Positions 6,798 to 21,746 of a stretch of 32,000 nucleotides of DNA are shown here, piece by piece. The notes under the pieces are model-generated. The model was not told the DNA's origin. It worked only from the letters and a program-made list of their open reading frames with translations, and ran no database searches. The number at the start of each line of letters is the position of its first letter. Position 1 is the stretch's first letter. Made by a program: the position numbers and the translations under genes. Source of the stretch: Ferroglobus placidus DSM 10642 (GTDB lineage: Archaea > Halobacteriota > Archaeoglobi > Archaeoglobales > Archaeoglobaceae); assembly GCF_000025505.1 (NCBI RefSeq), contig NC_013849.1, positions 2,070,001 through 2,102,000 of the forward strand. The letters are read 5' to 3'.

Positions 6798-7865
6798 TTA
6801 GAGCAGATAGGTATTTACCAATCTTTCCACGACTTCATCCCAATCCAGCAATTTTACATCTCCAACATTAACATTCGAAACTCTCTCTATCAGTCTGGCA
6901 AGCTCCGAAACGTTTATTGGGTAATCAATACCGAAAACGTTCTTGTTGTCTATCCATTCACTCAAAGCGGATGTGTTAGCAACAATACAAGGTGTTTTTG
7001 CCGCTAAAGCCTCAGCGACAACGATTCCGTAAGCTTCGTGCTTGGATAAAAGGATGAGGGTGTCAGCCTTTACATACCTCTCGATAAGTTCTTTTCTGCT
7101 TAAGTCCTGATAAAACCTAATCCTGTCGATAACATCTAACTTCTTGGCGAGTTTAACTATCTTCTGCTTGTAACTACCTTTACCGACAATCTCAAGTGTG
7201 AAGTTATCGGGCAAGTATTTCAGCGATTTTACGACGTAATCCAGCCCCTTGTACTTCTCGATTCTCCCGACGTAGAGGATAGTTTTCTTTTCCGTTTCTT
7301 TATCTTTCTTCATCTCACCAACGTCTTTAAACTCATCCAAATTTATTCCGTTCGGGATAACATACATTCTATCGGCAACCTTAAAATTCCTTAAAACCAA
7401 ATTTTTTTCGTAGTTGGAAACGCAAATTATAGCGTCAGCTTTCTCAAAAATTTTCCTGCCTACGAGCTTATACGGTTTGTGCAACAGATTTCTGAAAAAG
7501 CTGTGTCCAGCAGCATGGTAATGCGGAGTGAAGAGAAACTTGTTTTTCTTCTTCGTCAAAGCTGCGAACAAAGCGGGAAATGCGTGGTAGTTGTGAGCGT
7601 GAACCAAATCGTATCTCTCACTATTTTTCTTTAAATATCTGTAAAGCTCAAGTGAGAAATAATAAGCCTCCGAAGGTGCAAAAGATCCAAATCGCCTTAC
7701 GGTAATTCCATCGATCTCTTCAACTTTCGGCAGCTTTCCGCCCGGATCTGTGGTTAGAACCTCAACATCGAACTTCTTCGCTATCCTCTTGGCTATTTCG
7801 TAAACGTGGGTTTCAACTCCTCCGATGTAAGGATGAAAGCGGGGTGTGACGTAGGCAATTTTCAC
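6798..7865 (-). CDS. Glycosyltransferase family 4 (GT-B fold)
   Basis: 355 aa. MKIAYVTPRFHPYIGGVETHV is a GT4 N-terminus, and the C-terminal E-x7-E region is KHEAYGIVVAEALAAKTP. GTG start. Confidence 0.85.
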   Translation of the reverse strand: MKIAYVTPRFHPYIGGVETHVYEIAKRIAKKFDVEVLTTDPGGKLPKVEEIDGITVRRFGSFAPSEAYYFSLELYRYLKKNSERYDLVHAHNYHAFPALFAALTKKKNKFLFTPHYHAAGHSFFRNLLHKPYKLVGRKIFEKADAIICVSNYEKNLVLRNFKVADRMYVIPNGINLDEFKDVGEMKKDKETEKKTILYVGRIEKYKGLDYVVKSLKYLPDNFTLEIVGKGSYKQKIVKLAKKLDVIDRIRFYQDLSRKELIERYVKADTLILLSKHEAYGIVVAEALAAKTPCIVANTSALSEWIDNKNVFGIDYPINVSELARLIERVSNVNVGDVKLLDWDEVVERLVNTYLL

Positions 7866-7920: not shown

Positions 7921-9574
7921 ATGTTTTCATATCGAAAACTTTATCATAGAAAGTTCTCAACAATCAGCGTGAATCTGAAAAAGTTTGACGTAGACGAGCT
8001 TTTCGTAACGCTCTTAATCGTGGTTCTCGTCGTAACAGCTTCAAACGTCTACTTCGTCCTCTCGAACGACATTCCTCGTCTTGGGATCCGGCGCTCCACA
8101 TGTACTACTCGCTGATATACTTTTACCTGATAAAATCGTTCGATTTTGGAAGCGTCGCAAAGGTCAGCAACTACTACCCGCCGTTCTTCCACCTTTCGTC
8201 CACTCCTCTCTACTTCGTTTTCGGCTTCTCCGAGAAGGTCGCAATTCTCACGAACGTGGTTTACTACTTCGTCCTCGTTTACTCGGTTTTTAGGATCGGA
8301 GAAATTCTAAAGGGATAGAAGAGCTGGCTTGATCTCATCCATCGTCGTCTCCGTCTTTCCGGTCCTTATAAAGTTTCAGCGGGTTTACATGCTCGACTTC
8401 GCCTTAATGTCGCTCGTCGCGCTGACAGTATATCTTTACCTCAAATCGAAAGATTTCAGAGATCTAAAATATTCATTGCTCTTCGGGGATTTCGTTTGGT
8501 CTCAGCGAGCTCACGAAGTGGAACGCCTTCATATACGTTCTTCCTACGATTTTTGCGATCTTTCTGATCAACTACTTCACTAGGTGTCCCTATTGCTATG
8601 AGGTTGTTCGAGAGGGTCTAAAGCACAGGTACAGGAAATTCCGCTCGAAGAAACATCTGCAGCTCTATGAAAATAGAAAGAATAAAAATAGTCAATATTT
8701 AAACGGTACATTCTCCATAATTCTGGCGTTCTTCGTAGCTGCGTGGTGGTATCTGCCGAACCTTAGAGTTACTCTTGCGAGACTTACGTACTTCGCAAAC
8801 ATCGGCGGAAGGGAAGGGGATCCGACTTTTCTGACTCTTCGGGGCTGGATTTATTACGCGAACGCTCTGCTCGATCACTTGGGGCTATTCTTCGCTCTGC
8901 TGTTTTTGATCTCTCTTTACTACCTCTACAAGCGAGATCGCAGAATTGCCGTGACAATTTTGGTAGCTTTTGCTGTTCCCTACGTGATCTTAACGATACT
9001 CTCGAACAAGAACCCGAGATATATAATGCCCGTGCTCCCGATCATTGCAGTTTCGATCGGAGCCTTCGTCGGGGATATTTTCGAGAAGAAATTCGGAAAG
9101 GCGTTGGTCGTTCTGATACTCGCGATCGGAATCTTAAACATCTCTGCCGTCACGTTCGGTCAGCCAGGTGTGGATAACAAAATACTGCCGAAGCCCGATC
9201 GTCCGAGGAAAGAGGACTGGAGGATAAACGATCTGCTCGAAGCTATCGAAGAGAGCGGCGGAGAAGGAAAAGTCGTCGTGGTTTTGCCGGACCACCCTTA
9301 CTTAAACGGACAGTCTCTCGAGTTCTACAGGCTGAAAGGCGGATACAAATTCGCTATCTTCAACGGCGTTTACATCGGCTACGAAACGTTCGTTCGCAAC
9401 TTCGACAAAATAGGTTACGTCGTGGTAATAGAACCGAGGGACCACAAGGGCGTGTACGGTGACGTGGAAAAGAAGCTCTACGAATTCTTCTACGAGCACA
9501 GAGACGAGTTCGAAAAAGTGGCGACGTTCAAACTCCCCGACAGCAGCAACATGATTCTCTACAAGAGAGCATGA
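7921..9574 (+). pseudogene. GT-C fold membrane glycosyltransferase (ArnT/PMT_2/GT39-like) broken by about three frameshifts
   Basis: Four consecutive ORFs in frames 1,0,1,2 read through as one polytopic protein. The pieces are ...VLSNDIP | SWDPALHMYYSLIYFYL...RIGEILKG | RRAGLISSIVVSVFP...KYSLLFG | ISFGLSELTKWNAFIYVLPTIF...KNPRYIMPVLP..., followed by a soluble C-terminal domain. The shifts lie near 8075-8082, 8311-8317 (aaaggga) and 8470-8490 (gggg). Confidence 0.65.
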
Positions 9575-9836
9575 TAGATGTCACGAGGGTGCTCAAGTTT
9601 GCGATCGTCGGAGGATTTGGTGCTCTCGTGAACACGTCTCTCCTCTACGCGCTAACAGAATACTTGGGGCTTGAAGAGTAACCTGTGGAGAGTTTTCGGA
9701 ATTGCGCTGAACGTCCTTGTCCTCTACGTTCTGACAGAGTTACTTAAACGTCTACTACCTCCTGTCGAACTTCGCAGGAATTCTTTGCGCTTTCGCTCTC
9801 AACTACACTCTCGAAAGCAAGTTTACGTGGAGGTAG
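9571..9836 (+). pseudogene. GtrA-like membrane protein, frameshifted and shortened
   Basis: MIDVTRVLKFAIVGGFGALVNTSLLYALTEYLGLEE* (stop 9679-9681) is a GtrA N-terminus. The second half appears in two other frames (SNLWRVFGIALNVLVLYVLTELL, then NVYYLLSNFAGILCAFALNYTLESKFTWR*). The pieces total about 92 aa, shorter than typical GtrA proteins. The ATG overlaps the upstream stop (ATGA). Confidence 0.55.
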
Positions 9837-10699
9837 CCGCGAACTCTCCCCAGCGCGACGAACGTGACGGCGATCAGAATTCCCAAGCTTTCAGTAAGCT
9901 CACCTCTCGCAATTCTCTGCAGCGCAGACTTCAAAACGAAGTTGAGGTAGCGCTTCTCCGTGGAGAGCTCGTGTTCTCTACTTAAAATCGCCTTCGAGAA
10001 ACCTTCGTAGTAGGCTCTCCTCAAAGCGTAGCTAAGCTTCGCTCTGCTTTCTGGAACTCTGTGGTAAACTACAGCTGAGGGATCGTAGATTATCTTGGCT
10101 TCCGGCTTCAACTTTTTCAGCCTTAAACAGAGTTCAGTCTCTTCGCTTCCGAGCAGTTTTTTACCGTACCTCCCGACTTCCGCTTTAAATTTTCCAGCGA
10201 CCTCAAAAACTACCCTTCTAAAAGCCATATTCGCGCCGATTGGATTCCTTACTTCAGCTCTGCTTTCCGGCATCCCCTTGTACGTGCAGCCGACGATCCA
10301 GTCGAGCTCTTCGGCAAGCCATCTTGGTCTTTTTTTATCAAATACAGGAACGATTTTTCCTCCCGCTATCCAAACCTTTTCGTCTTCGAAATTCCTCAGC
10401 AAGTTCTCCAGCCACCTCTTATCAGCCCAGGCGTCGTCGTCTACGAAAGCAATTATATCGCCTTTTGAGACCTCGATCCCCTTGTTTCTCGCATTCGAAA
10501 GACCGAAACCGTTGGACTTTACTATCCTTATTCCTTCTCCAATCCGACTTTCGTAGAAACTCACGAGTTCGTCAACGGGATCGAGAACGAGAATTATCTC
10601 ATCTGGCTCCCTCGTCTGACTCTTTAGCGACTCGACGCACCGCTTGACGTCTTCGAGTCTCTCCTTAGTGTACGTCGAAATCACGACCGAAACTCGCAC
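9803..10699 (-). CDS. Glycosyltransferase family 2 (GT-A fold)
   Basis: 298 aa. VSVVISTYTKERLEDVKRCVESLKSQT and the DxD region IIAFVDDDAWAD are present. GTG start. Confidence 0.85.
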   Translation of the reverse strand: MRVSVVISTYTKERLEDVKRCVESLKSQTREPDEIILVLDPVDELVSFYESRIGEGIRIVKSNGFGLSNARNKGIEVSKGDIIAFVDDDAWADKRWLENLLRNFEDEKVWIAGGKIVPVFDKKRPRWLAEELDWIVGCTYKGMPESRAEVRNPIGANMAFRRVVFEVAGKFKAEVGRYGKKLLGSEETELCLRLKKLKPEAKIIYDPSAVVYHRVPESRAKLSYALRRAYYEGFSKAILSREHELSTEKRYLNFVLKSALQRIARGELTESLGILIAVTFVALGRVRGYLHVNLLSRV

Positions 10700-10977
10700 A
10701 GCTTAAAAATGGATTTACGAATTTAAATTTGTATCTAACCGACTTCTCTATACTTCTTACCTCTTCAAGGTTCGTCTCAAGATCTTTGAAATATTTCTTT
10801 CTACTCTTGTAAATACCTCTCAGGAAGTTTATTGCAGTTCTTTCAGCTGAGATTCCTCGAGACGACTTAATTATCTTCCACGAACCTCTCCAATTCATTG
10901 CTTTTAACAACCGAGGCGAGTTCCCTCAGCAACCTCCTGAGGCTGTGTTCTTTTCAAAAGAGTTTCGGCATCTCTTT

Positions 10978-11262: not shown

Positions 11263-11646
11263 ATGAAAGAAGAAGTAAAAGTGTACCTCGAAAGGTCTAA
11301 GAAGTTCGAGAGAGACGCTAAATTCGACTTCGACAACGGAGATTACGACTTGGCTATGTTCCACATAGAACAGGCGATGCAGCTTTTAATAAAAGCGAAG
11401 TTGCTCGACTTGAAAGGTTACTTTGAAAGAACACACAGCTTGAGGAAGCTCTTAAGCGAGCTTAAAGACGTAGAAGGTGTTGAAGATTTTTTGAAAAAAT
11501 ATAAAATCGTTTTGAGAAATCTCGAAAGAGCATACGTAACATCGAGATATTACTTCGAAGAATTTTTCAGAGAAGAGGTGGAGGAGGCTTTCAAAGCTTT
11601 AGAGGAGCTGAGGAGGATACTATGGAAAGAGCAGAATACTTCCTGA
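11263..11646 (+). CDS. HEPN-domain protein (pair A)
   Basis: 127-aa all-helical ORF with ERTHSLRKLL and YVTSRYY motifs typical of archaeal COG2250-type HEPN. It is coupled to a downstream MNT gene. Confidence 0.75.
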   Translation: MKEEVKVYLERSKKFERDAKFDFDNGDYDLAMFHIEQAMQLLIKAKLLDLKGYFERTHSLRKLLSELKDVEGVEDFLKKYKIVLRNLERAYVTSRYYFEEFFREEVEEAFKALEELRRILWKEQNTS

Positions 11647-11933
11647 ACTTCAAAAAATACGCTGAAGAAATAAAGAGAATCTTGAAAGAGCATCTTTCGG
11701 AGTTTGAGGTTTACGTTTTCGGCTCGGTCGTGAGGGGAGATTATTCGATAGGATTGAGCGATATAGATATTGCTGTCGTGTCTGACGAGCTGAAAGATAG
11801 GGAAAAGAAACTGGAGATATACGATTTACTCTTAGAAAAATTCTTCGAAACCCCTTTCGAGTTCCATCTTTTAACGAAGGAGAAGTGGAAGTTCTATCTA
11901 AGGTTTATTAAAAACGACTACGTAAAAATTTAG
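11622..11933 (+). CDS. Minimal nucleotidyltransferase, MNT (pair A)
   Basis: VFGSVVRGDYSIGLSDIDIAVV is the G-S-x(n)-D-x-D pol-beta-type NTase signature. It overlaps the HEPN gene by 25 nt. Confidence 0.85.
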   Translation: MERAEYFLNFKKYAEEIKRILKEHLSEFEVYVFGSVVRGDYSIGLSDIDIAVVSDELKDREKKLEIYDLLLEKFFETPFEFHLLTKEKWKFYLRFIKNDYVKI

Positions 11934-12673
11934 CGGAGTAAAATAATTCCCATGAAGAGTATGACGAAGGATAGAATCAGCCTCAAAGCTCTATCGTCAA
12001 CTTTCGAGTTTGCGTAAACTCCTAAAATTACCCCGGGAGCTGAGGAAGTTATTAAGATCGACGCAAGCTGAAAATCCACGTTACCGATTTTAGCGTGGAT
12101 AATAGAAGCTAACAAAGTTAGAACGAAGCCGAAGAGAAGCTCCGTTCCGACAACAACTTTCGAAATCATCCCGGTAAAAATCAGAAGAAAGAGAGTTACG
12201 AGAACTCCGCTGCCAACGGAGGTTAGCTGAACCAAAAATCCAACGACGAAGCCGATGAGAATTAAGAGGGAATTTTTCGGGATTTCGTCGCTCTTCTTTC
12301 CGAAGAAGGTTTTGTAAATCGTTGCGGTTGAGGAAATTATCAATACTAAAGCCAGAACCCTCGTCAAAAGAATATCTAAGTAATTTACTCCATAATTCTC
12401 AACAACAAACAGCATTAAGAAAGTTGACAAAGCCAAACCCGGAATAGCTCCCGAAAGCAGAAAAACGGAAGCTTTAACGTTGACGTTTCCCCTTTTGAAA
12501 TGGAATACGGTTGCAAAAAACCTCGTTATTGAGTTGTATAGCAAATCCGTTCCCACAGCAACAACCGGAGGAATGCCTAAGAAAATCAAAGCGGGGGTCA
12601 TCAAAGCCCCTCCGCCCATTCCGGTTAATCCCACTAAAAATCCGACGAAAAATCCGAGGACGTAGAGTTCCAA
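11930..12673 (-). CDS. TSUP/TauE-SafE family anion permease
   Basis: 247-aa polytopic protein with GFLVGLTGMGGGALMTPALIFLG, the hallmark of the DUF81/TSUP family. TTG start. It is the last gene of the sat operon. Confidence 0.8.
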   Translation of the reverse strand: MELYVLGFFVGFLVGLTGMGGGALMTPALIFLGIPPVVAVGTDLLYNSITRFFATVFHFKRGNVNVKASVFLLSGAIPGLALSTFLMLFVVENYGVNYLDILLTRVLALVLIISSTATIYKTFFGKKSDEIPKNSLLILIGFVVGFLVQLTSVGSGVLVTLFLLIFTGMISKVVVGTELLFGFVLTLLASIIHAKIGNVDFQLASILITSSAPGVILGVYANSKVDDRALRLILSFVILFMGIILLR

Positions 12674-12676
12674 ACT

Positions 12677-13201
12677 TCAAACCTCCAGGTATCCCAACTC
12701 CTTTGCTTTTTCGATGATAGCCTCAACCTCCTCTTCGACGCTCATTTTGTGGGTTTCGAGAATTAGTTCAGGATCGTCTGGCTCTTCGTAAACACCGTCG
12801 TAGCCAGTTAAGTTTTTAATCTCACCTCGCATAGCTTTAGCGTACAGTCCTTTTGGATCCCTCTTCATCCTTACTTCGAGGGGGCACTTGAGGTAAACTT
12901 CTATGAATTTTCCAATTTCCTCCCTCGCCTTTTCCCTCACTGACTTGTAAGGAGAGATTAAAGAAACGACTGTAACAACTCCGTTCCTTGACAAAAGCTT
13001 AGCCATGTGGATCACTACGCGATTATGCATTTCCCTCGCTTCCTTGCTGAAGCCTATGTCCGGGTAAAGCTTTCTTCTAATTTCATCTCCATCCAAGACC
13101 TCTACCTTCAGCCCCATCTCTTTAAGCCTTTTTTCCAATGCCCTCGCAAGGGTCGTTTTTCCTGCCCCGCTCGGACCGGTAAGCCATACAACGAAGCTCA
13201 T
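12677..13201 (-). CDS. cysC: Adenylylsulfate (APS) kinase
   Basis: 174 aa. FVVWLTGPSGAGKTTLARALEKRL...VLDGDEIR shows the P-loop and the LDGD motif of CysC. Confidence 0.9.
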   Translation of the reverse strand: MSFVVWLTGPSGAGKTTLARALEKRLKEMGLKVEVLDGDEIRRKLYPDIGFSKEAREMHNRVVIHMAKLLSRNGVVTVVSLISPYKSVREKAREEIGKFIEVYLKCPLEVRMKRDPKGLYAKAMRGEIKNLTGYDGVYEEPDDPELILETHKMSVEEEVEAIIEKAKELGYLEV

Positions 13202-14571
13202 ATCAATGCATTCCCCCTGAACTCAGCTTCTATGCCGAAAAGCTTTAGAATGGTAGGAGCGAAGTCGTATATCGAGCAGCTAATCCGCTTACTCTCTATT
13301 TCCGGATGGCTTAGTAGGAAAACTCCGTATTCTGAATGGACGGCATCGTCTGGCCCGGTATCGTTCTCAGCGAGATAGTTCGACTCCCAGCCGAGAGTTC
13401 CGGCAGCCCTCCAGTAGAGATCGTCGAAGTAAACCATTAAGTCCGGCTTGTCTCCCAAAGCGATCGGATATATTTCTTCTGGATAGAAAACCTTCGTATC
13501 CCACTTCTCCCCGTTAGGTCCTCTTATCGACTTTACGTGATCCGCTATTTCTTCCCTAACTTTCTCGTATTCGGATTTCTTTATTATCCCGTTCTTTTCT
13601 CTCCCTTCAACATTGAGGAAAATTCTCGAGTAGTATCCGCCCCAAGCCCACGCAACGGTTTTATTCCAATCGACGTCCAGCTCCTCGAATTTTACTCCGG
13701 CTCTTTTTTCGAGAATTTCAGGATTTCTGATTTTTAAATAGCCCTCCTCGATTAACCACTGATTAACTGCAAAAGCACCCTTCATTCTCTTTACCCCGTG
13801 ATCTGAAACTACAACTACGTAAGTGTCTTCCTCTACAAGCTCGAGGGTCTTTTTTATTTCCCTATCGAGGAGCTTGTAGTAGTCTTTTATAACGTTCTTG
13901 AACTTGCTGTTCTCTTCGTATAGGTGATGCTCTTTGTCGAAATACTTCCAGAAAGCGTGATGAATTCTGTCCAAACCAATTTCAACGAGCCAGAACAAGT
14001 CCCAGTCTTTTTCCTGAATTAGATGCCTTGCAACTTCAAACCTTTTCTCGGTCATTTCCCAGATTTTTTCCTTCACTTCCATCCTCTCGTCTTTTCTGAA
14101 AACGACGTCAAAGATGTACTCTCCAACAATCTTTTCCACCTCTTTCTTAAGCTCTTCGGGATAAGTGTAATTGGAGTTTGCGTCGGGAGTTATAAAGCAG
14201 CTTATTAGCCAACCGTTCACTCTCTTAGGCGGATAGCTTGGCGGAACTCCGATTAAAACGCTTTTCTTACCTTCCATTCCGAGGAAATCCCATATGGCAG
14301 GCTCAACTACCTTTCTGCTGTTCGCTATCCACATTTCATCGTAACTTCCAGCCTTTCTGTGCCTAAATCCGTATAATCCAAGCTCTCCCGGAGTTTTTCC
14401 CGTAAACATCACCGCCCAGGCTGGGATTGTTATTGCCGGAATGCAACTCCTCATCTCCCCGTAAATGGAGTTCTTTAAGAGCTTCTTTATCGCGGGCAGC
14501 TCATCTATGAACTTGCTGAATAAAAGTTCCGGAGGGGCTGAATCCAAACCGAAAATTAAAACCCTTACCAT
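13198..14571 (-). CDS. Alkaline-phosphatase-superfamily enzyme of the nucleotide pyrophosphatase/phosphodiesterase type; function unknown
   Basis: 457 aa. Motifs are LIFGLDSAPP (metal Asp), IPAITIPAWAVMFTGKTPG (T-x-P nucleophile context), GLDRIHHAFW, VVVSDHG and DDAVHSEYG. This is the AlkP/NPP metal-site pattern. Confidence 0.75.
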   Translation of the reverse strand: MVRVLIFGLDSAPPELLFSKFIDELPAIKKLLKNSIYGEMRSCIPAITIPAWAVMFTGKTPGELGLYGFRHRKAGSYDEMWIANSRKVVEPAIWDFLGMEGKKSVLIGVPPSYPPKRVNGWLISCFITPDANSNYTYPEELKKEVEKIVGEYIFDVVFRKDERMEVKEKIWEMTEKRFEVARHLIQEKDWDLFWLVEIGLDRIHHAFWKYFDKEHHLYEENSKFKNVIKDYYKLLDREIKKTLELVEEDTYVVVVSDHGVKRMKGAFAVNQWLIEEGYLKIRNPEILEKRAGVKFEELDVDWNKTVAWAWGGYYSRIFLNVEGREKNGIIKKSEYEKVREEIADHVKSIRGPNGEKWDTKVFYPEEIYPIALGDKPDLMVYFDDLYWRAAGTLGWESNYLAENDTGPDDAVHSEYGVFLLSHPEIESKRISCSIYDFAPTILKLFGIEAEFRGNALI

Positions 14572-15515
14572 ATGCTTTCACCGAAATGTTTCTCAATAAT
14601 TTTCACAACTTCACCAAGCTTTTCTCTCTCGCAAATTACTCCGAGAACGTCTTTTTTTCCTCCAGCGTTCAAATTTTTGCTTTTCAACTTTTTGATCAGC
14701 TCTTCAATCTTGTAATGCTCAGCTCTATCCTCTTTAACTCTCACGTAGAATTGAGAAAAGCCATAGTAGTTCTCGTTAACAACTACTGCAACTTCGCTAT
14801 TTAAGTCCCAAACGAGTTTTCTCGCGATGATAGATGCAATGTTGCAATCCGAAGAGAACTTTGCCAGACTAAACTTACCGTTTTCGCGAACTCTCTTCAA
14901 AACCCTGATTATCTCTCTTTCGATTTTTTCAACATTTCTGTTCCACGCCTCATCCTCAAGCAAATGCTTCGGATCGTTTTTTGCAACTTTCTCTACCGCT
15001 TCCTCAACTCCTCTTCTATCGAAAAGCAGAGACGGGGAGTTTATCAATTCCGCTAAGCGTGAAGCCTCCTCTTCGCTCAACTCATACTTTTTCAAAATTC
15101 TTAAAACCCATCCGAGTTTGAAAGCTCGTCTTCCGAGATCTCCCACAGCTCCCAAAGCAGATTTCCAGTTCCAGTGAGAAAAAAAGGATGAGACAACATA
15201 GCTTGCTGAAGGGGCTTGCTTTCCTTCAAAAATTGGATTTACGTGAACTACATTCTTCTTTTCGATTTTACTTTGAATGTGGTGATCCAAAAAGACTACA
15301 GGCTTTTCTATCCTTTCAACCTCGCTGGGAAGGTTTACGTCAACCACGTAGACTCTCTCCGCCTCTTTTACGGCATTCCAGATTCTTTCATCGAATTTGA
15401 AAATGCCCGGAGGCAATGTGATATTTTCAGAGTTATCTACAGCTTCCAAGATTAGAGATGCTGAACAGATTCCGTCTGTGTCCCAGTGGTGAATTATCAG
15501 ATTCATACTAATCAA
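14565..15515 (-). CDS. DHH/DHHA1-family phosphoesterase, candidate 3'-phosphoadenosine 5'-phosphate (pAp) phosphatase
   Basis: 316 aa. IIHHWDTDGICSA (DHH motifs I/II), VVFLDHHI (motif III) and a C-terminal AGGKKD in place of the DHHA1 GGGH. The function is inferred from its position between sat and cysC and from NrnA-type pAp phosphatase precedent. Confidence 0.7.
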   Translation of the reverse strand: MISMNLIIHHWDTDGICSASLILEAVDNSENITLPPGIFKFDERIWNAVKEAERVYVVDVNLPSEVERIEKPVVFLDHHIQSKIEKKNVVHVNPIFEGKQAPSASYVVSSFFSHWNWKSALGAVGDLGRRAFKLGWVLRILKKYELSEEEASRLAELINSPSLLFDRRGVEEAVEKVAKNDPKHLLEDEAWNRNVEKIEREIIRVLKRVRENGKFSLAKFSSDCNIASIIARKLVWDLNSEVAVVVNENYYGFSQFYVRVKEDRAEHYKIEELIKKLKSKNLNAGGKKDVLGVICEREKLGEVVKIIEKHFGESIW

Positions 15516-16662
15516 CGAAGGGTTTTTCGAAGCTTAAAATCACTTCAGCCACTTCTGGACGCATCATTTCTCTTGGCGGGAATTTTCCTTCCATAAGCAT
15601 CTCTCTTATTTTCGTTCCGCTTGGAGGAATTATGTCATCCCCTCTGTGGGGGCAAACTGCCTCGTTCACGTATCCGTAGCACTTCTTGCAGTAGTAAAAC
15701 TGCTTGAAAAATATTGGAGTAATTCCCAAATCTGGAAATTCCTCGAATATCTCCTGAGCTTCGTAAGGTTTGTAATAGCTTCCAACTCCGGCGTGATCTC
15801 TTCCAACTATGAAATGAGTACATCCAAAATTCTTCCTCACTATAGCGTGAAAAATCGCCTCCCTTGGACCAGCATAACGCATTTCAGTTCTAAGAATTGC
15901 CAAAACCGCTCTGTTCTTTAGGTAGTACTTTTCGATCAAAACTTCGTAGGCTTTGAGTATAACCTCGTCTCTGAAATCACCTTTCTTCTTTTTTCCTATG
16001 ACTGGGTTGATGAAAAGACCGTCTACGAAAGTTAAAGCCGTTTTCTGAACGTACTCGTGCCCTAAATGCGGGGCGTTCCTCGTTTGAAATCCGACGATGG
16101 TTCTCCATCCAAGCTCTTTAAACAAAACTCTCGTCTCTATTGGCTGGAGAGTGTACTTTTCGAAGGGATTTTCGATTCGATTCAAAAGCTCTATTTTCCC
16201 TCCAACGAGCCTATCTCTCATTTCGAAGACTTTTTTTACTCCAGGATGATCCAAATCTGTTGTCTTGAAAACTTTTTCAGCGTACTCTCTTTTATCGAAT
16301 TCGTAAATTTCCTCCACTTCCATCAAAGCTTCCACGTCGCCGTTGGTAACTAAAGCTACAACGTCCCCTTCACGAATTTCTAACTTTTCAAGCTCATCGA
16401 GGGAAACGTCGAGAACAATCGGAATAGTCCACGGAAGATCGTTTTCCAAACGCATGGTCTCAAGAACTGAAATGAAGTCGTTTCTCGTCATGAATCCTTC
16501 AAGAGGCGAGTAAACTCCGTGAGCTATGTTTTCTACCTCTACAGCCGTTTCCTTTGAAATCTCTATTTTCGGCAATTCTTTAGCTTCTTCAAGTAATTTA
16601 CTTCTTCTATCTTCAGCGACAACTCTATTAACGAGCTTTCCTCCGTGAGGTTTTGCTGGCAT
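15508..16662 (-). CDS. sat: Sulfate adenylyltransferase (ATP sulfurylase)
   Basis: 384 aa. Motifs are GFQTRNAPHLGHEYVQK and VGRDHAGVG. The C-terminal Cys/His cluster YYCKKCYGYVNEAVCPH matches the short archaeal/thermophile type. Confidence 0.92.
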   Translation of the reverse strand: MPAKPHGGKLVNRVVAEDRRSKLLEEAKELPKIEISKETAVEVENIAHGVYSPLEGFMTRNDFISVLETMRLENDLPWTIPIVLDVSLDELEKLEIREGDVVALVTNGDVEALMEVEEIYEFDKREYAEKVFKTTDLDHPGVKKVFEMRDRLVGGKIELLNRIENPFEKYTLQPIETRVLFKELGWRTIVGFQTRNAPHLGHEYVQKTALTFVDGLFINPVIGKKKKGDFRDEVILKAYEVLIEKYYLKNRAVLAILRTEMRYAGPREAIFHAIVRKNFGCTHFIVGRDHAGVGSYYKPYEAQEIFEEFPDLGITPIFFKQFYYCKKCYGYVNEAVCPHRGDDIIPPSGTKIREMLMEGKFPPREMMRPEVAEVILSFEKPFVD

Positions 16663-16668
16663 AAAAGA

Positions 16669-16911
16669 TCAGTCCAGGTATCCTAAAGCTCTGAGTCTCT
16701 CCTTTACCTTTTCCTCTTCTTCCTTGCTAAAAGCCTCTTCTTTCTCCTCTTCCTCCAAACTTGCGAGAACCTCTCTTAAAACGTAGGTTACGTAGTCAGA
16801 AACGGAGGTAAAGCCAGTCCCTTCAATTCTCTGCTTTATTTTCTCATACAACTGCACCGGAATGCTAACGGTAGTGTACTTCCTCTTCTCCTCCTCGCTC
16901 ATACAAACCAC
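16669..16911 (-). CDS. Ribbon-helix-helix (CopG-family) DNA-binding protein, first gene of the sat operon
   Basis: KYTTVSIPVQLYEKIKQRIEGTGFTSVSDYVTYVLREVL fits RHH, followed by an acidic tail ending RLRALGYLD. The start is GTG at 16911 or ATG at 16902. Its stop is 6 nt from the sat start. Confidence 0.7.
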   Translation of the reverse strand: MVCMSEEEKRKYTTVSIPVQLYEKIKQRIEGTGFTSVSDYVTYVLREVLASLEEEEKEEAFSKEEEEKVKERLRALGYLD

Positions 16912-16951: not shown

Positions 16952-17281
16952 TTACAAAACTCTAATCCAGTATTTGCGAGCATCCCTCAGAACTATACTT
17001 TCTTTTCTCTTTAGCTCTTCAGTAGTTACCGGAATTACTTCGACATTTCCGAGCTTCTCTTTCCAAATAATCTCGTTAACAATATCGAGTCTTTTTAAAA
17101 AAGCTACGCCTTCCCAATCGTCGGAAACAACAATCAGATCGATATCGCTACGCTTTAGGTAATCTCCTCGTGCGTAGCTTCCGAAGAGGTAAATTCCACT
17201 AATCTTAATTCCCCTTTTATAAAGAGCCTCTTTTAATTTTTCAGCCACTTCTATTACTCTCTTCGGCAAATTTCTTTGCAT
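16952..17281 (-). CDS. Minimal nucleotidyltransferase, MNT (pair B)
   Basis: LFGSYARGDYLKRSDIDLIVVSD is the NTase signature. It overlaps the upstream HEPN gene by 41 nt. Confidence 0.85.
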   Translation of the reverse strand: MQRNLPKRVIEVAEKLKEALYKRGIKISGIYLFGSYARGDYLKRSDIDLIVVSDDWEGVAFLKRLDIVNEIIWKEKLGNVEVIPVTTEELKRKESIVLRDARKYWIRVL

Positions 17282-17654
17282 AATCTAAAACCTCTTTCGC
17301 AATTTTCAAAGCTCTTTCCGCCTCTATTTTATCCACGCTTTCCGAAGGTAATCCGTTTGCAGCATCTGGATATCTTGAGACGGTGTAGTATTTGTTTAAA
17401 ATGTAGAGCTGCTCTTCTATCTCCTTAGGCAAGTTAAAACCGCTTTTCTTTAATTCAGCGTATAGCTCAGTGACAGTATGAATTTTCGGCGGATCTTCTT
17501 TTTTAACAATGAAAAACATAGCCTTAAATGCCTTTTCTACAGCTTGCTGGGAGAAAAAAGCCGTTCTAAAGTACCTTGAGTTTTTAAAGAATAGTTCTGC
17601 GTCGTAAACGTCGTCTTCAGCAGCTTTCAGCCATAAAGCAACCTCCCTTCGCAT
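17241..17654 (-). CDS. HEPN-domain protein (pair B)
   Basis: 137-aa helical ORF with PPKIHTVTELY and YYTVSRYPD motifs of archaeal HEPN. Confidence 0.8.
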   Translation of the reverse strand: MRREVALWLKAAEDDVYDAELFFKNSRYFRTAFFSQQAVEKAFKAMFFIVKKEDPPKIHTVTELYAELKKSGFNLPKEIEEQLYILNKYYTVSRYPDAANGLPSESVDKIEAERALKIAKEVLDYAKKFAEESNRSG

Positions 17655-17727: not shown

Positions 17728-18216
17728 GTGTTCTTTTCAGAAGTTTACGAGAGCTGGAGGGAAATACAGTACGAGAAGTACGAAGAAATACTGAAAAGAA
17801 TTGAAGCTAACGGCTTAAGCCTCGGAAAGTTCGTTCTCGATCTCGGTTCAGCTTCCGGCTTTCTGTACGATTTTCTGGCTGAAAGAGCTGCTGAAGTTGA
17901 GATAGTTGCACTGGACGTTGATAAAAAATCTCTGATGAAGAACTCTTCCGACCACAGAGTTATTGCCGACGGAGATAACCTCCCCTTCAAAAAAAGCGTA
18001 TTCGACAGTCTTTTCTGCGTCGATGTCGCTCATCTCCTCGACTATCTGGAATTTGACTGCATAAAAAAAGAAGGGACTATCGTTCTTGCTCTTCCAGCGA
18101 GACACAAAAACGTTTTCGAGGAAATTCTGAAGAATAAGAGAAATTGCGAACTCGTGGAAAAATTCGTAGTCAACGGCAGGGAAAAGGAGTTAGTGGCACT
18201 TTTGAAAAAGCTATAA
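17728..18216 (+). CDS. Class I SAM-dependent methyltransferase (small)
   Basis: 162 aa. VLDLGSASGFL is SAM-binding motif I, followed by VALDVD and GDNLPFKKSVFDSLF. GTG start. Confidence 0.7.
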   Translation: MFFSEVYESWREIQYEKYEEILKRIEANGLSLGKFVLDLGSASGFLYDFLAERAAEVEIVALDVDKKSLMKNSSDHRVIADGDNLPFKKSVFDSLFCVDVAHLLDYLEFDCIKKEGTIVLALPARHKNVFEEILKNKRNCELVEKFVVNGREKELVALLKKL

Positions 18217-18245
18217 CAGTAAAATTTAAATCCAAATTTCCGAAG

Positions 18246-20771
18246 ATGTTTGCCATGTCTCAAAAGCTTGAAAGGTACTGGCACGTTCCGTTTATTCTCC
18301 TCGCGATTATTCTCGCTCTCTACATAAGAATCGTAAATCCTTGGAATCTTGTATTCGTTCCTTGGATGGAAGGGGCAAGGCTGAGCGGGAACGACCCCTG
18401 GTATTACTTTAGACTCGTTGAAAGCACCATACACAACTTTCCGAACAGGATTTGGTTTGACGCTTTTACACATTACCCCTACGGCACCTACACGCACTTT
18501 GGCCCCTTCTTAACTTATCTGAGCGCTTTTGCAGCAATGATCGCCGGAGCATCGTCTTCGGCTGAGATTAGAACTGTCATAGCTTTCATCCCAGCAATCG
18601 GAGGAGCTTTGTTAGCTTTGCCAACGTATCTACTAACGAAAGAAGTCTTCGGAAAAAAAGCTGGAGTCATCGCTTCCATTTTAGTCGTTCTGATTCCGGG
18701 ACAGCTGATGGCAAGGAGCGTATTAAGTTTCAACGATCATCACATATGGGAAGTTTTTTGGCAAATTGCAGCTCTCGGAACGTTTATTCTGGCTTACAAC
18801 AGATGGAAGAGCAGAGATTACGGAGAAAATATAAAAGACAATAAGCAGCTGGCCTATCCTATCCTTGCGGGTATTTGCATGGGGTTGTATATACTGGCGT
18901 GGGGACCCGGATTCATCTCAGCTCTTCTCATTCTCGTATTCGTCTTTTTCGCATTTCTGTTAAAGGACTTCTTCAAAATAGATACGAAAAGTCTGGCATT
19001 TGTTTCGGTAATCGCTTTTCTCGTTGCAGCTGTGATTTATCTTCCATTCTCTTTCAAAGCGCCCGGGCTTAGCACTACACGTTATACCGCATTTCAACTT
19101 CTTGTTCTGATCGGCTCAGCTTTAATCGTTAGCCTATTCTATTTTGTCGAAAAATTCGTTGAAAGCAAGATAGACAAAAGGTATGCATTTCAGATCATTA
19201 TTCTGTTGCTATCAGCAACTCTTACAGCGATTGCCTTTATCATCGCTCCGGATTTCGCGAGAAATTTGCAATACATTTTCAGAGTCGTTCAGCCGAAAGG
19301 AGGAGCTTTAACGATAGCGGAAGTCCAGCCATTCTTCTCTCTCGGAGGAAAGTTCAGCTTGACACCAGCGTGGCAGAACTTCAGCGTTACTTTCTTCTTC
19401 GCAATCCCAGCAATGGTGTACTACCTTTATAGACTCGTAAAGACGAGAGACGAAAGATTGCTCTTCATACTGATCTGGGGCTTCGCAATGCTTGTTGCCT
19501 TAGCCGGTCAGAACAGATTCGCCTATTATTTCGGAGTAGTTTCGGCAGTTTTCGCAGCTGCAATAGCTGACAAAATTCTCGAAAAGCTGAGCTTTTACGA
19601 CTACATTTCAGCTGCTGTTAAGAATGATGAGAAAACGATGAAGAAGATAGGAGCGAGTAAAGTTATAGCCGGAGCGCTCGTTCTTGCAGTTTTAATATAC
19701 CCGACGTTCTCTCAAGCTAACTTCTACAGCAAGTATTCAGCTGGAGGTATAAACAAGCAGTGGTATGATGCACTAATTTGGATGCGGGAAAACACTCCGG
19801 GAAAGGAGATGTACGATAAGTTCTACTACGAACTCTACAAACCTCCAGAAAATCCGAGGGAAAGGTATCCTTACTATCCCGAGGGAGTCTACAGTGTTAT
19901 GAGCTGGTGGGACTACGGGCACTGGATCACGGCAATAGCTCACAGAATCCCCGTTGCCAACCCTTTCCAGCAAGGAATAGGGAACAAGTACAACAACGTT
20001 CCCGGAGCAGCACCTTTCTTCACAGCTCTAAACGAAAGCTACGCAAATAGCATAGCGGAAAAGCTTGATGTTAAATATGTCGTGAGCGATGTGGAAATGG
20101 CTACCGGAAAGTTTTACGCCATGGCAGTTTGGGCTGAGGGGACTCTCGAAAAAGGGTGGAGAACTTATTACGCCGGAACTGGCATAATCTACCACGATCT
20201 GAGAGGAAACATAGGCATCTCCCTCTCCCCAAGACTTCCTCCGGGAGTGACTCCTATGGGAACTATAAGCGTTCCGAACGAAAACTACTACAAGACTATG
20301 GAAGCCAAGTTCCACATCTTCGACGGAATCGGATTAAAGCACTACAGAATGGTATACGAAAGCGAATCTTCAGCCGGAACTTTTCCCGGGATTCAAGAAC
20401 TTTTCTATCGAAAAAGATTCAACAGCATCTACTCTAAGAGCTTCGGCTTCAAAGTGAATGAAACGTCCACGGGCTACGTCAAAGTTTTCGAATACGTGAA
20501 AGGTGCAATTGTGAAAGGAAAAGCTTCTGGAGACTACGTTGTTGCTAAAGTGAAAATAAAAACGAATCAAGGGAGAGTTTTCGAGTACGTTCAGAGAGTT
20601 AAAGTTGAAAACGGAGAATACGAGCTCGTATTACCTTACGCTCAGGAAACAAAATATCCGGTGAAGCCGATAGAAGATTACAGAATAGAAAGCGGAGGTG
20701 TCGTGAAAACGCTGAAGCTGAGCGATGAGGAGTTGGAGAAGGGAGAGGTAATCCAGCTCGATCTGATTTAG
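18246..20771 (+). CDS. aglB: Archaeal oligosaccharyltransferase AglB (STT3 family), long form
   Basis: Polytopic N-terminal domain with GNDPWYYFR and SFNDHH acidic-loop motifs. The diagnostic SWWDYGHW (WWDYG) motif is present, followed by a soluble C-terminal domain. The start is placed at MFAMSQKLERYWHVPFILL (18246; alternative ATG at 18255), because the track ORF start at 18144 lies inside the methyltransferase gene. Confidence 0.92.
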   Translation: MFAMSQKLERYWHVPFILLAIILALYIRIVNPWNLVFVPWMEGARLSGNDPWYYFRLVESTIHNFPNRIWFDAFTHYPYGTYTHFGPFLTYLSAFAAMIAGASSSAEIRTVIAFIPAIGGALLALPTYLLTKEVFGKKAGVIASILVVLIPGQLMARSVLSFNDHHIWEVFWQIAALGTFILAYNRWKSRDYGENIKDNKQLAYPILAGICMGLYILAWGPGFISALLILVFVFFAFLLKDFFKIDTKSLAFVSVIAFLVAAVIYLPFSFKAPGLSTTRYTAFQLLVLIGSALIVSLFYFVEKFVESKIDKRYAFQIIILLLSATLTAIAFIIAPDFARNLQYIFRVVQPKGGALTIAEVQPFFSLGGKFSLTPAWQNFSVTFFFAIPAMVYYLYRLVKTRDERLLFILIWGFAMLVALAGQNRFAYYFGVVSAVFAAAIADKILEKLSFYDYISAAVKNDEKTMKKIGASKVIAGALVLAVLIYPTFSQANFYSKYSAGGINKQWYDALIWMRENTPGKEMYDKFYYELYKPPENPRERYPYYPEGVYSVMSWWDYGHWITAIAHRIPVANPFQQGIGNKYNNVPGAAPFFTALNESYANSIAEKLDVKYVVSDVEMATGKFYAMAVWAEGTLEKGWRTYYAGTGIIYHDLRGNIGISLSPRLPPGVTPMGTISVPNENYYKTMEAKFHIFDGIGLKHYRMVYESESSAGTFPGIQELFYRKRFNSIYSKSFGFKVNETSTGYVKVFEYVKGAIVKGKASGDYVVAKVKIKTNQGRVFEYVQRVKVENGEYELVLPYAQETKYPVKPIEDYRIESGGVVKTLKLSDEELEKGEVIQLDLI

Positions 20772-20814: not shown

Positions 20815-21303
20815 ATGGAAAACGTTCATCTGAATCTTGCGAGAAAACTCGTGGATCTTTTGAAAAGAAAGTTCCGTGAAAGACTAATCTCTGTGGCTGT
20901 ATTTGGATCTGTGGCAAGGGGAGAAGCGAGAAAGGACAGCGACATAGACGTTTTGGTAGTAATCGAAAATCCTCCTAAAAGTAGAATTAGGAGGCAGCTC
21001 GAATTTGCAGAAGCCGAAAAGGATTTGGAAAATCTAAAAGATGAGCTGATCGACAAAGGTTATTTCATCGACTTCTCGCCGTTAATTCTTTCTCCGGAAG
21101 AGGTGAAAAATCATCCGCCAATTCTTCTCGACATGGTCGAGGATGCTATAATCCTTTACGACAAGAACGATTTTCTCAGAAAAACCCTTGAAAATTTAAA
21201 GGAGAAACTTCGAAAGCTCGGAGCAAAAAGGGTGAGAATTGGCAAAAGATGGTACTGGATCCTAAAGCCGGACTACAAGTTCGGAGAGGTGATAGAGATT
21301 TGA
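20815..21303 (+). CDS. Nucleotidyltransferase-domain protein, MNT-type with C-terminal extension (pair C)
   Basis: VFGSVARGEARKDSDIDVLVV is the NTase signature. 162 aa. A TATA-like aaagtataatt lies about 27 nt upstream. Confidence 0.8.
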   Translation: MENVHLNLARKLVDLLKRKFRERLISVAVFGSVARGEARKDSDIDVLVVIENPPKSRIRRQLEFAEAEKDLENLKDELIDKGYFIDFSPLILSPEEVKNHPPILLDMVEDAIILYDKNDFLRKTLENLKEKLRKLGAKRVRIGKRWYWILKPDYKFGEVIEI

Positions 21304-21314
21304 ACAGTCTTTCG

Positions 21315-21746
21315 ATGGCTAAAGCTTACATTAGACAGGCTGAGGAAAGGAAGAAACACGCTGAAGAAGCTTTCGAAAGCGGGAATTACCCTTACGTAAT
21401 AAGGCAGTGTCAAGAAGCGGTTGAGCTGTCTTTGAAAGCGGCTCTGAGGATTGTAGGGATAGAGCCGCCCAAACTTCACGATGTCGGTCCAATACTCAGA
21501 AAAAACAAGGATTTGTTTCCCGAATGGTTTAGAGAGAATGTTGATAAAATGGCGTCTATTTCGAGAACTTTGAGAAGGGAAAGGGAAACGAGCATGTACG
21601 GAGATGAAGAATTGTCTTTACCTCCGGAAGAAATTTACTCTAAAGAGGATGCTAAAATGGCTTTGGAAGGTTGCAACTTCGTCCTAAAAAATTGTAAAAA
21701 ACTCTTGGAAGAATTCATTCAAAATACTTCTTCGCAAAATCCTTAA
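21315..21746 (+). CDS. HEPN-domain protein (pair C)
   Basis: The start is placed at MAKAYIRQAEERKKHAEEAF (ATG 21315), 11 nt after the MNT stop. Motifs are PPKLHDVGPIL and RRERETSMYGDE. The track ORF start at 21249 overlaps the MNT gene. Confidence 0.75.
   Translation: MAKAYIRQAEERKKHAEEAFESGNYPYVIRQCQEAVELSLKAALRIVGIEPPKLHDVGPILRKNKDLFPEWFRENVDKMASISRTLRRERETSMYGDEELSLPPEEIYSKEDAKMALEGCNFVLKNCKKLLEEFIQNTSSQNP

Follow-up and report, generated by a model that had tools for sequence, protein, structure and literature searches.

Two studies bear on the archaeal operon considered here. In Methanothermococcus thermolithotrophicus, 3′-phosphoadenosine 5′-phosphosulfate (PAPS) goes to an unusual reductase, and a "non-canonical sulfo-transferase", with no enzyme named, was postulated for methanogens that possess ATP sulfurylase (ATPS), adenosine 5′-phosphosulfate (APS) kinase (APSK) and 3′-phosphoadenosine 5′-phosphate (PAP) phosphatase (PAPP) and are unable to grow on sulfate (Jespersen & Wagner 2023, PMC10322725). 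Jin et al. (2021, PMC8268124) listed ferp_2428-2433 as a cluster, named its CopG regulator, guessed that its alkaline phosphatase (AlkP) superfamily gene degrades pyrophosphate (PPi), and detected neither a sulfotransferase nor an enzyme forming sulfite in P. yayanosii, a carrier of the operon. Here we analyse a 32,000-nucleotide stretch of the Ferroglobus placidus DSM 10642 genome (NC_013849.1, positions 2,070,001 to 2,102,000; hereafter the window) and, within it, an AlkP gene that stands between genes for a PAP phosphatase and an APS kinase (CysC). On balance we think it somewhat likely that the product of this gene is a non-canonical PAPS-dependent sulfotransferase, a reading based on comparative genomics. 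Joining the AlkP gene to the postulated sulfotransferase, with evidence from displacement, appears to be new within the literature searched.

An AlkP-type enzyme with an intact two-metal site

The gene and the residues predicted to form its active site are as follows.

13198..14571, minus strand: AlkP-type enzyme of the nucleotide pyrophosphatase/phosphodiesterase (NPP) kind, candidate non-canonical PAPS sulfotransferase; 457 aa, ATG start, PF01663
14542-14544, minus strand: codon of D10, metal ligand
14428-14430, minus strand: codon of T48, candidate nucleophile
13969-13971, minus strand: codon of D201, metal ligand
13957-13959, minus strand: codon of H205, metal ligand
13798-13803, minus strand: codons of D257 and H258, metal ligands
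13336-13338, minus strand: codon of H412, metal ligand

The 457-aa protein matches Pfam family PF01663 (Phosphodiest) over residues 4-408 (E 2.8e-46; 159 bits against a cut-off of 23), and the match covers model positions 1-342, that is, the full length. Its motifs fall at G8-L9-D10-S11, P45-A-I-T48-I-P50, D201-R-I-H204-H205, S256-D257-H258-G259 and H412, and together they supply the two-metal site (Asp, Asp/His, Asp-His, His) and the Thr nucleophile of NPP/PF01663 enzymes. Residues D10, T48, D201, H205, D257, H258 and H412 are invariant among 43 close homologs, and of 150 sequences representing clusters at 50% identity, about 115-142 retain the metal and Thr residues. A sequence-only reading of the window had described a protein of this length with the full AlkP/NPP metal-site pattern and had recommended a profile assignment; the open reading frame (ORF) and all of the motifs it quoted are located where it placed them, and the profile assignment gave the match to the whole PF01663 model. 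The two overlaps it reported are likewise exact at the sequence level: the AlkP start and the stop of the upstream DHH-family gene share the 7 nt ATGGTAA, and 4 nt (ATGA) are shared with cysC at the cysC start. A chance ORF is ruled out by the Pfam E-value and by thousands of homologs. No signal peptide is present, and because of this, and because the D10 metal ligand is carried by the first strand, the protein is expected in the cytoplasm; the same two observations rule out a secreted NPP-like phosphodiesterase.

Structure prediction and comparison, which had also been recommended, confirmed an AlkP alpha/beta core. The AlphaFold2 model (pLDDT 89.7, pTM 0.91) has its best matches in the Protein Data Bank (PDB) exclusively among NPPs, namely Xanthomonas (Xac) NPP, ENPP1/3/5/6 and autotaxin, with a Foldseek probability of 1.0, TM-scores of 0.55-0.67 and 11-16% identity; with such scores a chance match need not be considered. 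Sequence searches of the PDB, with the protein itself or with a 43-sequence profile, gave nothing usable, so only the fold comparison placed the protein beside the NPPs; no NCBIfam model matched it. By its model, the protein belongs to the alkaline phosphatase superfamily as a distant relative of the NPPs that shares their fold and is longer by about 80 residues. The subfamily it defines is large and conserved, with neither a solved structure nor a curated family: 2,848 clusters at 50% identity are found at E < 1e-30, and the core protein is 55-70% identical across phyla.

Among the top 150 representatives, the subfamily signature consists of R70, R72, R159, R202, K/Q/R261, N270, R316, R324 and D408, with D404 also listed. 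Its Arg/Lys residues were seen neither in NPP, for which the sole alignment is weak, nor in distant PF01663 paralogs (22-35% identity). Sequence neighbours of the nucleophile loop and of the metal ligands include R70/R72, R202 and K261, an arrangement that fits a strongly anionic (polyanionic) substrate. In the weak profile alignment to Xac NPP (E 0.097), I49 lies opposite an NPP Phe and F69/R70 opposite an NPP Asn; these positions were compared with regard to the nucleotide-binding slot and to the Asn in contact with the phosphoryl oxygen. The protein has no Pfam or NCBIfam match to the canonical PAPS sulfotransferases (PF00685, PF13469, PF09037). The formylglycine motif C-x-[PA]-x-R occurs nowhere in it, its nucleophile context being T-I-P-A-W, and PF00884 is not matched; absence of the motif rules out identity as a sulfatase.

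Linkage to PAPS synthesis and PAP removal

In the window, the AlkP gene belongs to a six-gene minus-strand operon with the order CopG-like, Sat, DHH, AlkP, CysC and TauE, joined throughout by overlaps or by gaps of ≤6 nt. Its partners are listed here.

16669..16911, minus strand: CopG-like ribbon-helix-helix (RHH) small protein, first gene of the operon and presumed regulator; weak RHH_1 match
15508..16662, minus strand: ATP sulfurylase (Sat), sulfate + ATP -> APS + PPi; PF01747, PF14306, NCBIfam PRK04149 (548 bits)
14565..15515, minus strand: DHH-family PAP phosphatase, ortholog of the M. thermolithotrophicus enzyme (MtPAPP); PF01368
12677..13201, minus strand: APS kinase (CysC), APS + ATP -> PAPS + ADP; PF01583, TIGR00455 (233 bits)
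11930..12673, minus strand: TauE/SafE-family (TSUP) anion permease, presumably the operon's sulfate importer; PF01925 (147 bits)

The sequence-only reading had placed AlkP between a candidate PAP phosphatase and an APS kinase, and both identities hold. The DHH protein aligns end-to-end (residues 5-310, E 1.4e-80) with PDB 8a8k, the characterised PAP phosphatase of M. thermolithotrophicus, and CysC is assigned by TIGR00455. The TTG start given for the DHH gene is a mechanical call, and an ATG at residue 4 is an alternative start.

An AlkP-seeded scan with one genome per species recovered 80 loci (52-89% identity) that span Archaeoglobi, Methanococci, Thermococci, Thermoplasmatota, Asgard, Bathyarchaeia, Aigarchaeota, Thermoproteota and DPANN, with bacterial loci in Aminicenantes/Acidobacteriota. 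Among loci with enough flanking sequence (71 downstream, 56 upstream), CysC lies ≤1.5 kb downstream of AlkP in 64/71 and Sat ≤2.5 kb upstream in 43/56, while Sat or DHH is found upstream in 53/56. In widely separated taxa the gene is thus linked in operons to cysC, to sat and to the PAP phosphatase gene, as a PAPS consumer should be, and it does not show the distribution that the earlier reading had considered fatal to its proposal, with orthologs mostly in genomes that lack sat and cysC. A CopG-like gene precedes Sat or DHH in 47 of 77 loci, and TauE follows CysC in 13 of the AlkP-seeded loci. Thirteen loci without a nearby Sat, mostly from Archaeoglobaceae, retain AlkP-CysC, and 10 of these also retain DHH; AlkP therefore goes with the PAPS/PAP half of the pathway and not with the step that produces PPi, and CysC, often together with DHH, is its most stable partner. 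The minimal and most widespread unit is Sat-AlkP-CysC, which has overlapping codons and contains no sugar gene. Operons that lack DHH (Aminicenantes, Bathyarchaeia and others) still carry AlkP. At the Thermococcus loci L021 (11371-11840) and L024 (8261-8731), two small genes of about 82 and 74 aa, which resemble a toxin-antitoxin pair as far as their sequences can be read, lie between AlkP and CysC; this junction tolerates insertions.

Signature-bearing AlkP domains also occur as fusions, including CysC-AlkP, AlkP-GT2 (L082, arranged Sat-CysC-AlkP::GT2), AlkP-methyltransferase and NTP-transferase-AlkP. In a Sat-AlkP fusion of 856 aa (P0135), Ala and Tyr are aligned with D257 and H258, so that two metal ligands are lost; this AlkP domain may be inactive, or there may be an alignment error at these positions. 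Fusions to a pyruvate-kinase (PK) barrel take the forms AlkP-PK and AlkP-PK-Sat (1151 aa) and were found at L081:7459-10914 and L083:4297-6657, and also in L084 and L085; no APS-kinase gene is visible on the contigs of these four loci. The PK-like domain occupies the usual position of CysC. The L081 fusion is followed by a PHP-family phosphatase and has a second AlkP/sulfatase-like gene, a flippase and glycosyltransferases in its vicinity.

Recurrent neighbours of the AlkP loci, those of DPANN included, are RmlA/GlmU-like nucleotidyltransferases, short-chain dehydrogenase/reductase (SDR) epimerases, RmlC/RmlD, GT2 and GT4 glycosyltransferases, and flippases. DPANN genomes with such glycan genes beside AlkP are unlikely to assimilate sulfur reductively. 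One SDR protein of about 836 aa, resembling dTDP-glucose-4,6-dehydratase (L027:15393-17903, minus strand, and also in L032), is apparently interrupted by an intein-like insertion, again on a reading of the sequence only.

This company of sugar genes bears on a different explanation, in which AlkP is a phosphoryl-transfer enzyme of a sugar pathway (a phosphomutase, phosphatase or phosphodiesterase) and is connected to the PAPS genes only through the same glycan. The AlkP superfamily includes phosphomutases, and the public annotation of the protein is "AlkP superfamily phosphohydrolase/phosphomutase". Nucleotidyltransferases, SDR epimerases and GlmS are frequent neighbours, an NTP-transferase-AlkP fusion exists, and distant subfamily members stand apart from Sat and CysC, all as this explanation would have it. 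We nonetheless consider it unlikely: no sugar gene is found in the tightly overlapping Sat-AlkP-CysC unit, direct fusions join AlkP to CysC and a degenerate AlkP domain to Sat, and the sister operons described in the next section swap in sulfotransferases, not sugar enzymes.

Several loci carry extra distant PF01663 paralogs (22-35% identity) beside the core AlkP gene, often near glycosyltransferases. They keep the metal/Thr site, lack the Arg/Lys signature, and could be further glycan-modifying transferases.

L016:17589-19232, distant PF01663 paralog
L035:5802-7232, distant PF01663 paralog
L036:7841-9421, distant PF01663 paralog
L042:5178-6722, distant PF01663 paralog
L055:1534-2979, distant PF01663 paralog
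L058:3271-4713, distant PF01663 paralog
L062:5306-8693, distant PF01663 paralog
L078:1810-3273, distant PF01663 paralog

A very acidic, haloarchaeal-type member of the core subfamily (P0179, L089:4487-5896; 20% Asp+Glu, 40% identical to the window protein) has neither Sat/CysC nor agl-like genes around it; its neighbours are a glycerophosphodiesterase, an acetyltransferase and a class-I tRNA-synthetase-like gene.

Alternative candidate PAPS consumers in sister operons

Operons were also sampled independently of AlkP, by alignment of the DHH phosphatase against metagenome contigs, with DHH, CysC and ≥2.5 kb of downstream sequence required. AlkP lies between DHH and CysC in 22 of them. In 16, a protein of about 192 aa adjoins CysC (or precedes Sat); 12 of 12 members tested match both PF00685 (Sulfotransfer_1) and PF13469 (Sulfotransfer_3), and the profile of the group matches structures of cytosolic (SULT) and tyrosylprotein (TPST) sulfotransferases. 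L107 has a 311-aa PF00685 sulfotransferase (77.6 bits) within a cluster of flippase, UDP-glucose-dehydrogenase (UGDH) and glycosyltransferase genes, bringing the total of canonical sulfotransferases to 17. A single operon (L116) contains a PAPS reductase of the M. thermolithotrophicus type, and a single one (L126) has no AlkP, sulfotransferase or reductase. AlkP and a sulfotransferase occur together in 0 DHH-sampled operons (Fisher p = 1e-9, a value that overstates independence). AlkP, canonical sulfotransferase and PAPS reductase are thus alternatives, never two in one DHH-sampled operon. The AlkP protein itself was matched neither by a local sulfotransferase hidden Markov model (HMM; c5) nor by phmmer with the L107 sulfotransferase.

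Metagenome contigs, a simple ORF caller and a neighbour-joining tree underlie these counts, and related loci are non-independent observations. In the tree of DHH proteins, sulfotransferase-type and reductase-type operons are nested inside AlkP-type lineages. We read this as at least three switches from AlkP to sulfotransferase (two by parsimony, plus L107 after its reclassification) and one to the reductase, the direction of which depends on midpoint rooting. A contig whose DHH protein is 100% identical to MtPAPP has the order Sat-DHH-CysC-TauE-PAPSR alpha-PAPSR beta, with DHH and CysC only about 180 bp apart and AlkP absent. PAPS synthesis can therefore do without AlkP in the one organism whose use of PAPS is established. 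The M. infernus locus extends past the start of its genome record, which places the AlkP region outside view.

The operon types differ in other respects. A Na+/sulfate symporter and a universal stress protein take the place of TauE in sulfotransferase-type operons, some of which (L142 and L158, e.g. L142:2595-3515; L149:9162-10592) have a CysD/CysN-type sulfate adenylyltransferase, with PAPS_reduct-fold and EF-Tu-like subunits, and not Sat. A nucleotidyltransferase is common to AlkP-type (22 loci) and sulfotransferase-type (8 loci) operons. GlmS occurs in four DHH-sampled loci, three of them sulfotransferase-type and one truncated.

The either/or distribution is expected if AlkP fills the PAPS-consuming slot, and it weakens the published guess that AlkP hydrolyses PPi. 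That guess, made for the P. yayanosii ortholog PYCH_17550 (Jin et al. 2021, PMC8268124), can be put more broadly: AlkP would be a "pull" enzyme that hydrolyses PPi from Sat and from neighbouring sugar nucleotidyltransferases and so drives the unfavourable synthesis of APS. ATPS activity in vitro is limited by PPi removal, and the fusions to Sat, to an NTP-transferase and to a pyruvate-kinase barrel plus Sat resemble PPi- and ADP-removing modules. Alkaline phosphatases are able to hydrolyse PPi, and a site of the phosphomonoesterase or PPi type would call for just such extra Arg/Lys beside the Thr and the two metals. The distribution of a pyrophosphatase should be different, however, since sulfotransferase- and reductase-type operons need PPi removal just as much as those that carry AlkP. 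Where Sat lies elsewhere (the 13 loci above), AlkP remains with CysC and mostly with DHH; AlkP-type operons would have a PAP phosphatase but no enzyme that produces PAP; the GT2 and methyltransferase fusions would be left unexplained; and an ordinary PPase has been assigned in M. thermolithotrophicus. PF01663 is the sole Pfam match of the protein and its fold matches are NPPs, which excludes membership in the inorganic pyrophosphatase families I and II, though not a PPi-hydrolysing activity. We regard a pull enzyme as improbable.

The same pattern bears on a third explanation, that AlkP hydrolyses nucleotides of the APS/PAPS/PAP pool, as a PAPS/APS phosphodiesterase or a second 3′-phosphatase, and thereby limits toxic intermediates. 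APS and PAPS are nucleotide phosphoanhydrides, the class of compound that NPP enzymes cleave. The NPP fold and NPP-type catalytic residues of AlkP, a basic signature that suits a nucleotide bisphosphate, and the presence of AlkP in operons without DHH are all in keeping with this role. It would nevertheless be wasteful to co-transcribe a pathway with an enzyme that destroys its product, and wherever DHH is present the part of PAP phosphatase is already taken. Neither mutual exclusion with the sulfotransferases and the reductase nor the GT2 and methyltransferase fusions would be accounted for, and we think a pool hydrolase unlikely.

The sequence-only reading had singled out AlkP, the one operon member to which no role was assigned, as the best candidate for a missing step, which it took to be either sulfuryl transfer or hydrolytic control of the APS/PAPS pools. 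The first part gains support from the linkage to cysC and sat, from non-co-occurrence with known PAPS consumers, from the reductase operon without AlkP and from the fusions; the second is disfavoured by the either/or pattern.

A proposed PAPS-dependent sulfotransferase reaction

In the pathway that we propose, sulfate would probably be imported by TauE, converted to APS by Sat and, as APS, phosphorylated to PAPS by CysC. The AlkP protein, as a cytoplasmic two-metal enzyme of NPP fold, would then pass a sulfuryl group from PAPS to an acceptor hydroxyl (or amino) group with release of PAP, which the DHH phosphatase would convert to AMP and Pi. We infer PAPS, not APS, to be the donor. Catalysis may proceed through Thr48, which, once activated by the two-metal site, could form a covalent sulfo-Thr intermediate by analogy with phospho-Thr in NPP and in phosphoethanolamine transferases; transfer could alternatively be in-line and metal-assisted.

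Such a sulfotransferase would probably feed glycan synthesis. As acceptor, a reasonable guess is some small and conserved precursor of sugar type on the way to an N-glycan or surface polysaccharide: a nucleotide sugar, a polyprenyl-phosphate sugar, or the phosphate of a hexosamine or hexose. This guess draws on the glycosylation island and other glycan genes around the operons, on the nucleotidyltransferase common to both operon types, on GlmS, and on the high conservation of AlkP. A more specific version, which we hold to be possible but doubtful, is that AlkP founds a new class of PAPS sulfotransferase with an NPP fold, a covalent sulfo-threonine and, as acceptor, a small sugar precursor of universal occurrence, for example a nucleotide sugar or the 1-phosphate of a hexosamine or hexose. 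If so, sulfate would enter the glycans of archaea (and Aminicenantes) as a pre-sulfated activated sugar and not by sulfation of finished glycans, which would explain both the dedicated nucleotidyltransferase beside the operon and the very high conservation.

Several observations weigh against a sulfotransferase. The earlier reading knew of no characterised superfamily member with a sulfuryl-transfer role; our literature searches for an AlkP-superfamily sulfotransferase also found nothing relevant, and no Thr-nucleophile enzyme of the superfamily was found in the literature to carry out sulfuryl transfer from PAPS. The core protein is unusually conserved. Glycan sulfotransferases typically are not, and such conservation would also suit a housekeeping partner of Sat/CysC. 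The Sat, nucleotidyltransferase and pyruvate-kinase-barrel fusions are equally compatible with a pull enzyme that removes by-products. Distant subfamily members (≤40% identity) occur without Sat/CysC nearby; these were sampled on short contigs with uninformative neighbours. The complementary distribution of AlkP and known PAPS consumers has one exception at the level of the neighbourhood: the AlkP locus L042 has a canonical sulfotransferase homolog about 4 kb away. It was found by phmmer, whereas a crude scan of the AlkP-seeded loci for sulfotransferase and PAPS-reductase motifs had found none and was, as this match showed, too insensitive. Finally, L086 (A. fulgidus-type) has CysC and the DHH PAP phosphatase (genes 7083-7550 and 9801-10736, with an ABC transporter between them) and neither AlkP, a canonical sulfotransferase nor a PAPS reductase within 16 kb.

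To our knowledge, all known PAPS-dependent sulfotransferases have one P-loop-type fold. If our proposal is true, a metal-dependent sulfotransferase of AlkP fold would be a second and mechanistically different solution and would extend the catalytic range of the superfamily; confirmation of the activity would establish a new fold class for a well-known reaction. It would also answer why many archaea (Thermococcales, Methanocaldococcus, Archaeoglobales, Asgard, DPANN and others), which have no known PAPS-using enzyme and do not grow on sulfate, keep genes for PAPS synthesis and PAP removal, and it would point to widespread sulfation of archaeal surface glycans. The subfamily, with its approximately 2,850 clusters at 50% identity, provides testable candidates.

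Surroundings of the operon in the window

Outside the operon, the window contains a GT4 gene, a fragmented GT-C (Alg9-like) gene, a GT2 gene, a methyltransferase, AglB and three pairs of HEPN and nucleotidyltransferase genes. The following are given as context.

18144..20771, plus strand: AglB oligosaccharyltransferase (STT3, AglB_core-like, AglB_L1)
9803..10699, minus strand: GT2 glycosyltransferase
6798..7865, minus strand: GT4 glycosyltransferase

As context only, AglB marks a surrounding N-glycosylation island; aglB lies next to the operon in this genome only and, weakly, in L122. The TTG start assigned mechanically to AglB lies inside the upstream methyltransferase ORF (17728-18216), which gives an overlap of 73 nt (18144-18216), and the true start is probably at a downstream Met codon. 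Three plus-strand ORFs (8100-8318, 8329-8583 and 8879-9574) resemble pieces of a single membrane GT-C glycosyltransferase, the last of them matching Alg9-like GT22, and probably represent a frameshifted or decaying gene. The pairs of HEPN and minimal-nucleotidyltransferase genes, which are toxin-antitoxin-like (11263-11933, 16952-17654 and 20815-21746), sit exactly at the borders between modules, that is, between the glycosyltransferase genes, the PAPS operon, the methyltransferase-AglB segment and the genes downstream.

Comparison with known systems

NPPs (Xac NPP, ENPP1/3) share with AlkP the fold, the Pfam family, the two-metal ligand set and a Thr nucleophile in T-x-P. They are only 11-16% identical to it, and AlkP has its additional residues in part as a conserved insertion at about 270-360 that carries R316 and R324. 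The subfamily Arg/Lys signature is absent from NPPs as far as the weak alignment goes, and, by that alignment, the residue after the nucleophile, Ile in AlkP, takes the place of an aromatic residue that helps to hold the nucleotide in Xac NPP. In contrast to NPPs, AlkP is cytoplasmic by prediction and is encoded inside a PAPS operon.

Superfamily members that act as group transferases through a covalent Thr/Ser intermediate include EptA/MCR-1, LtaS and the GPI ethanolamine-phosphate transferases, the last of which have a PF01663-type domain. These phosphoethanolamine and phosphoglycerol transferases come nearest to AlkP in mechanism and are a model for a possible sulfo-Thr ping-pong reaction in it, with no sequence relationship detectable. 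Unlike AlkP, they are anchored in the membrane and work on its outer or luminal side; their donors are lipids, and what they transfer is a phosphoryl-type group and not sulfate. The same superfamily includes the type I sulfatases and phosphonate monoester hydrolases (PF00884), with their nucleophile at the position equivalent to T48. These enzymes carry out sulfur chemistry on sulfate esters, but they use a formylglycine derived from C/S-x-P-x-R, hydrolyse rather than transfer, and have a single metal.

Haloferax volcanii offers a lead from glycobiology. Agl7 (HVO_2046) of its low-salt N-glycan pathway is genetically required for sulfation of the dolichol-phosphate-linked hexose, and the agl7 cluster, with rhamnose-synthesis genes, glycosyltransferases and a flippase, resembles several AlkP loci; this resemblance is a lead only.

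In function, the nearest known enzymes are the canonical P-loop PAPS sulfotransferases (PF00685/PF13469), which share the proposed reaction and the operon slot with AlkP. Their fold is unrelated and needs no metals, and their 5′-PSB and 3′-PB motifs are absent from AlkP. A further close system is the sulfate-assimilation operon of M. thermolithotrophicus, which has orthologs of four genes in the same order (Sat 64%, PAP phosphatase 46%, CysC 73% and TauE 39% identity). Unlike the operon of the window, it has no AlkP and ends in a dissimilatory-type PAPS reductase, by which PAPS is reduced rather than used for sulfation.

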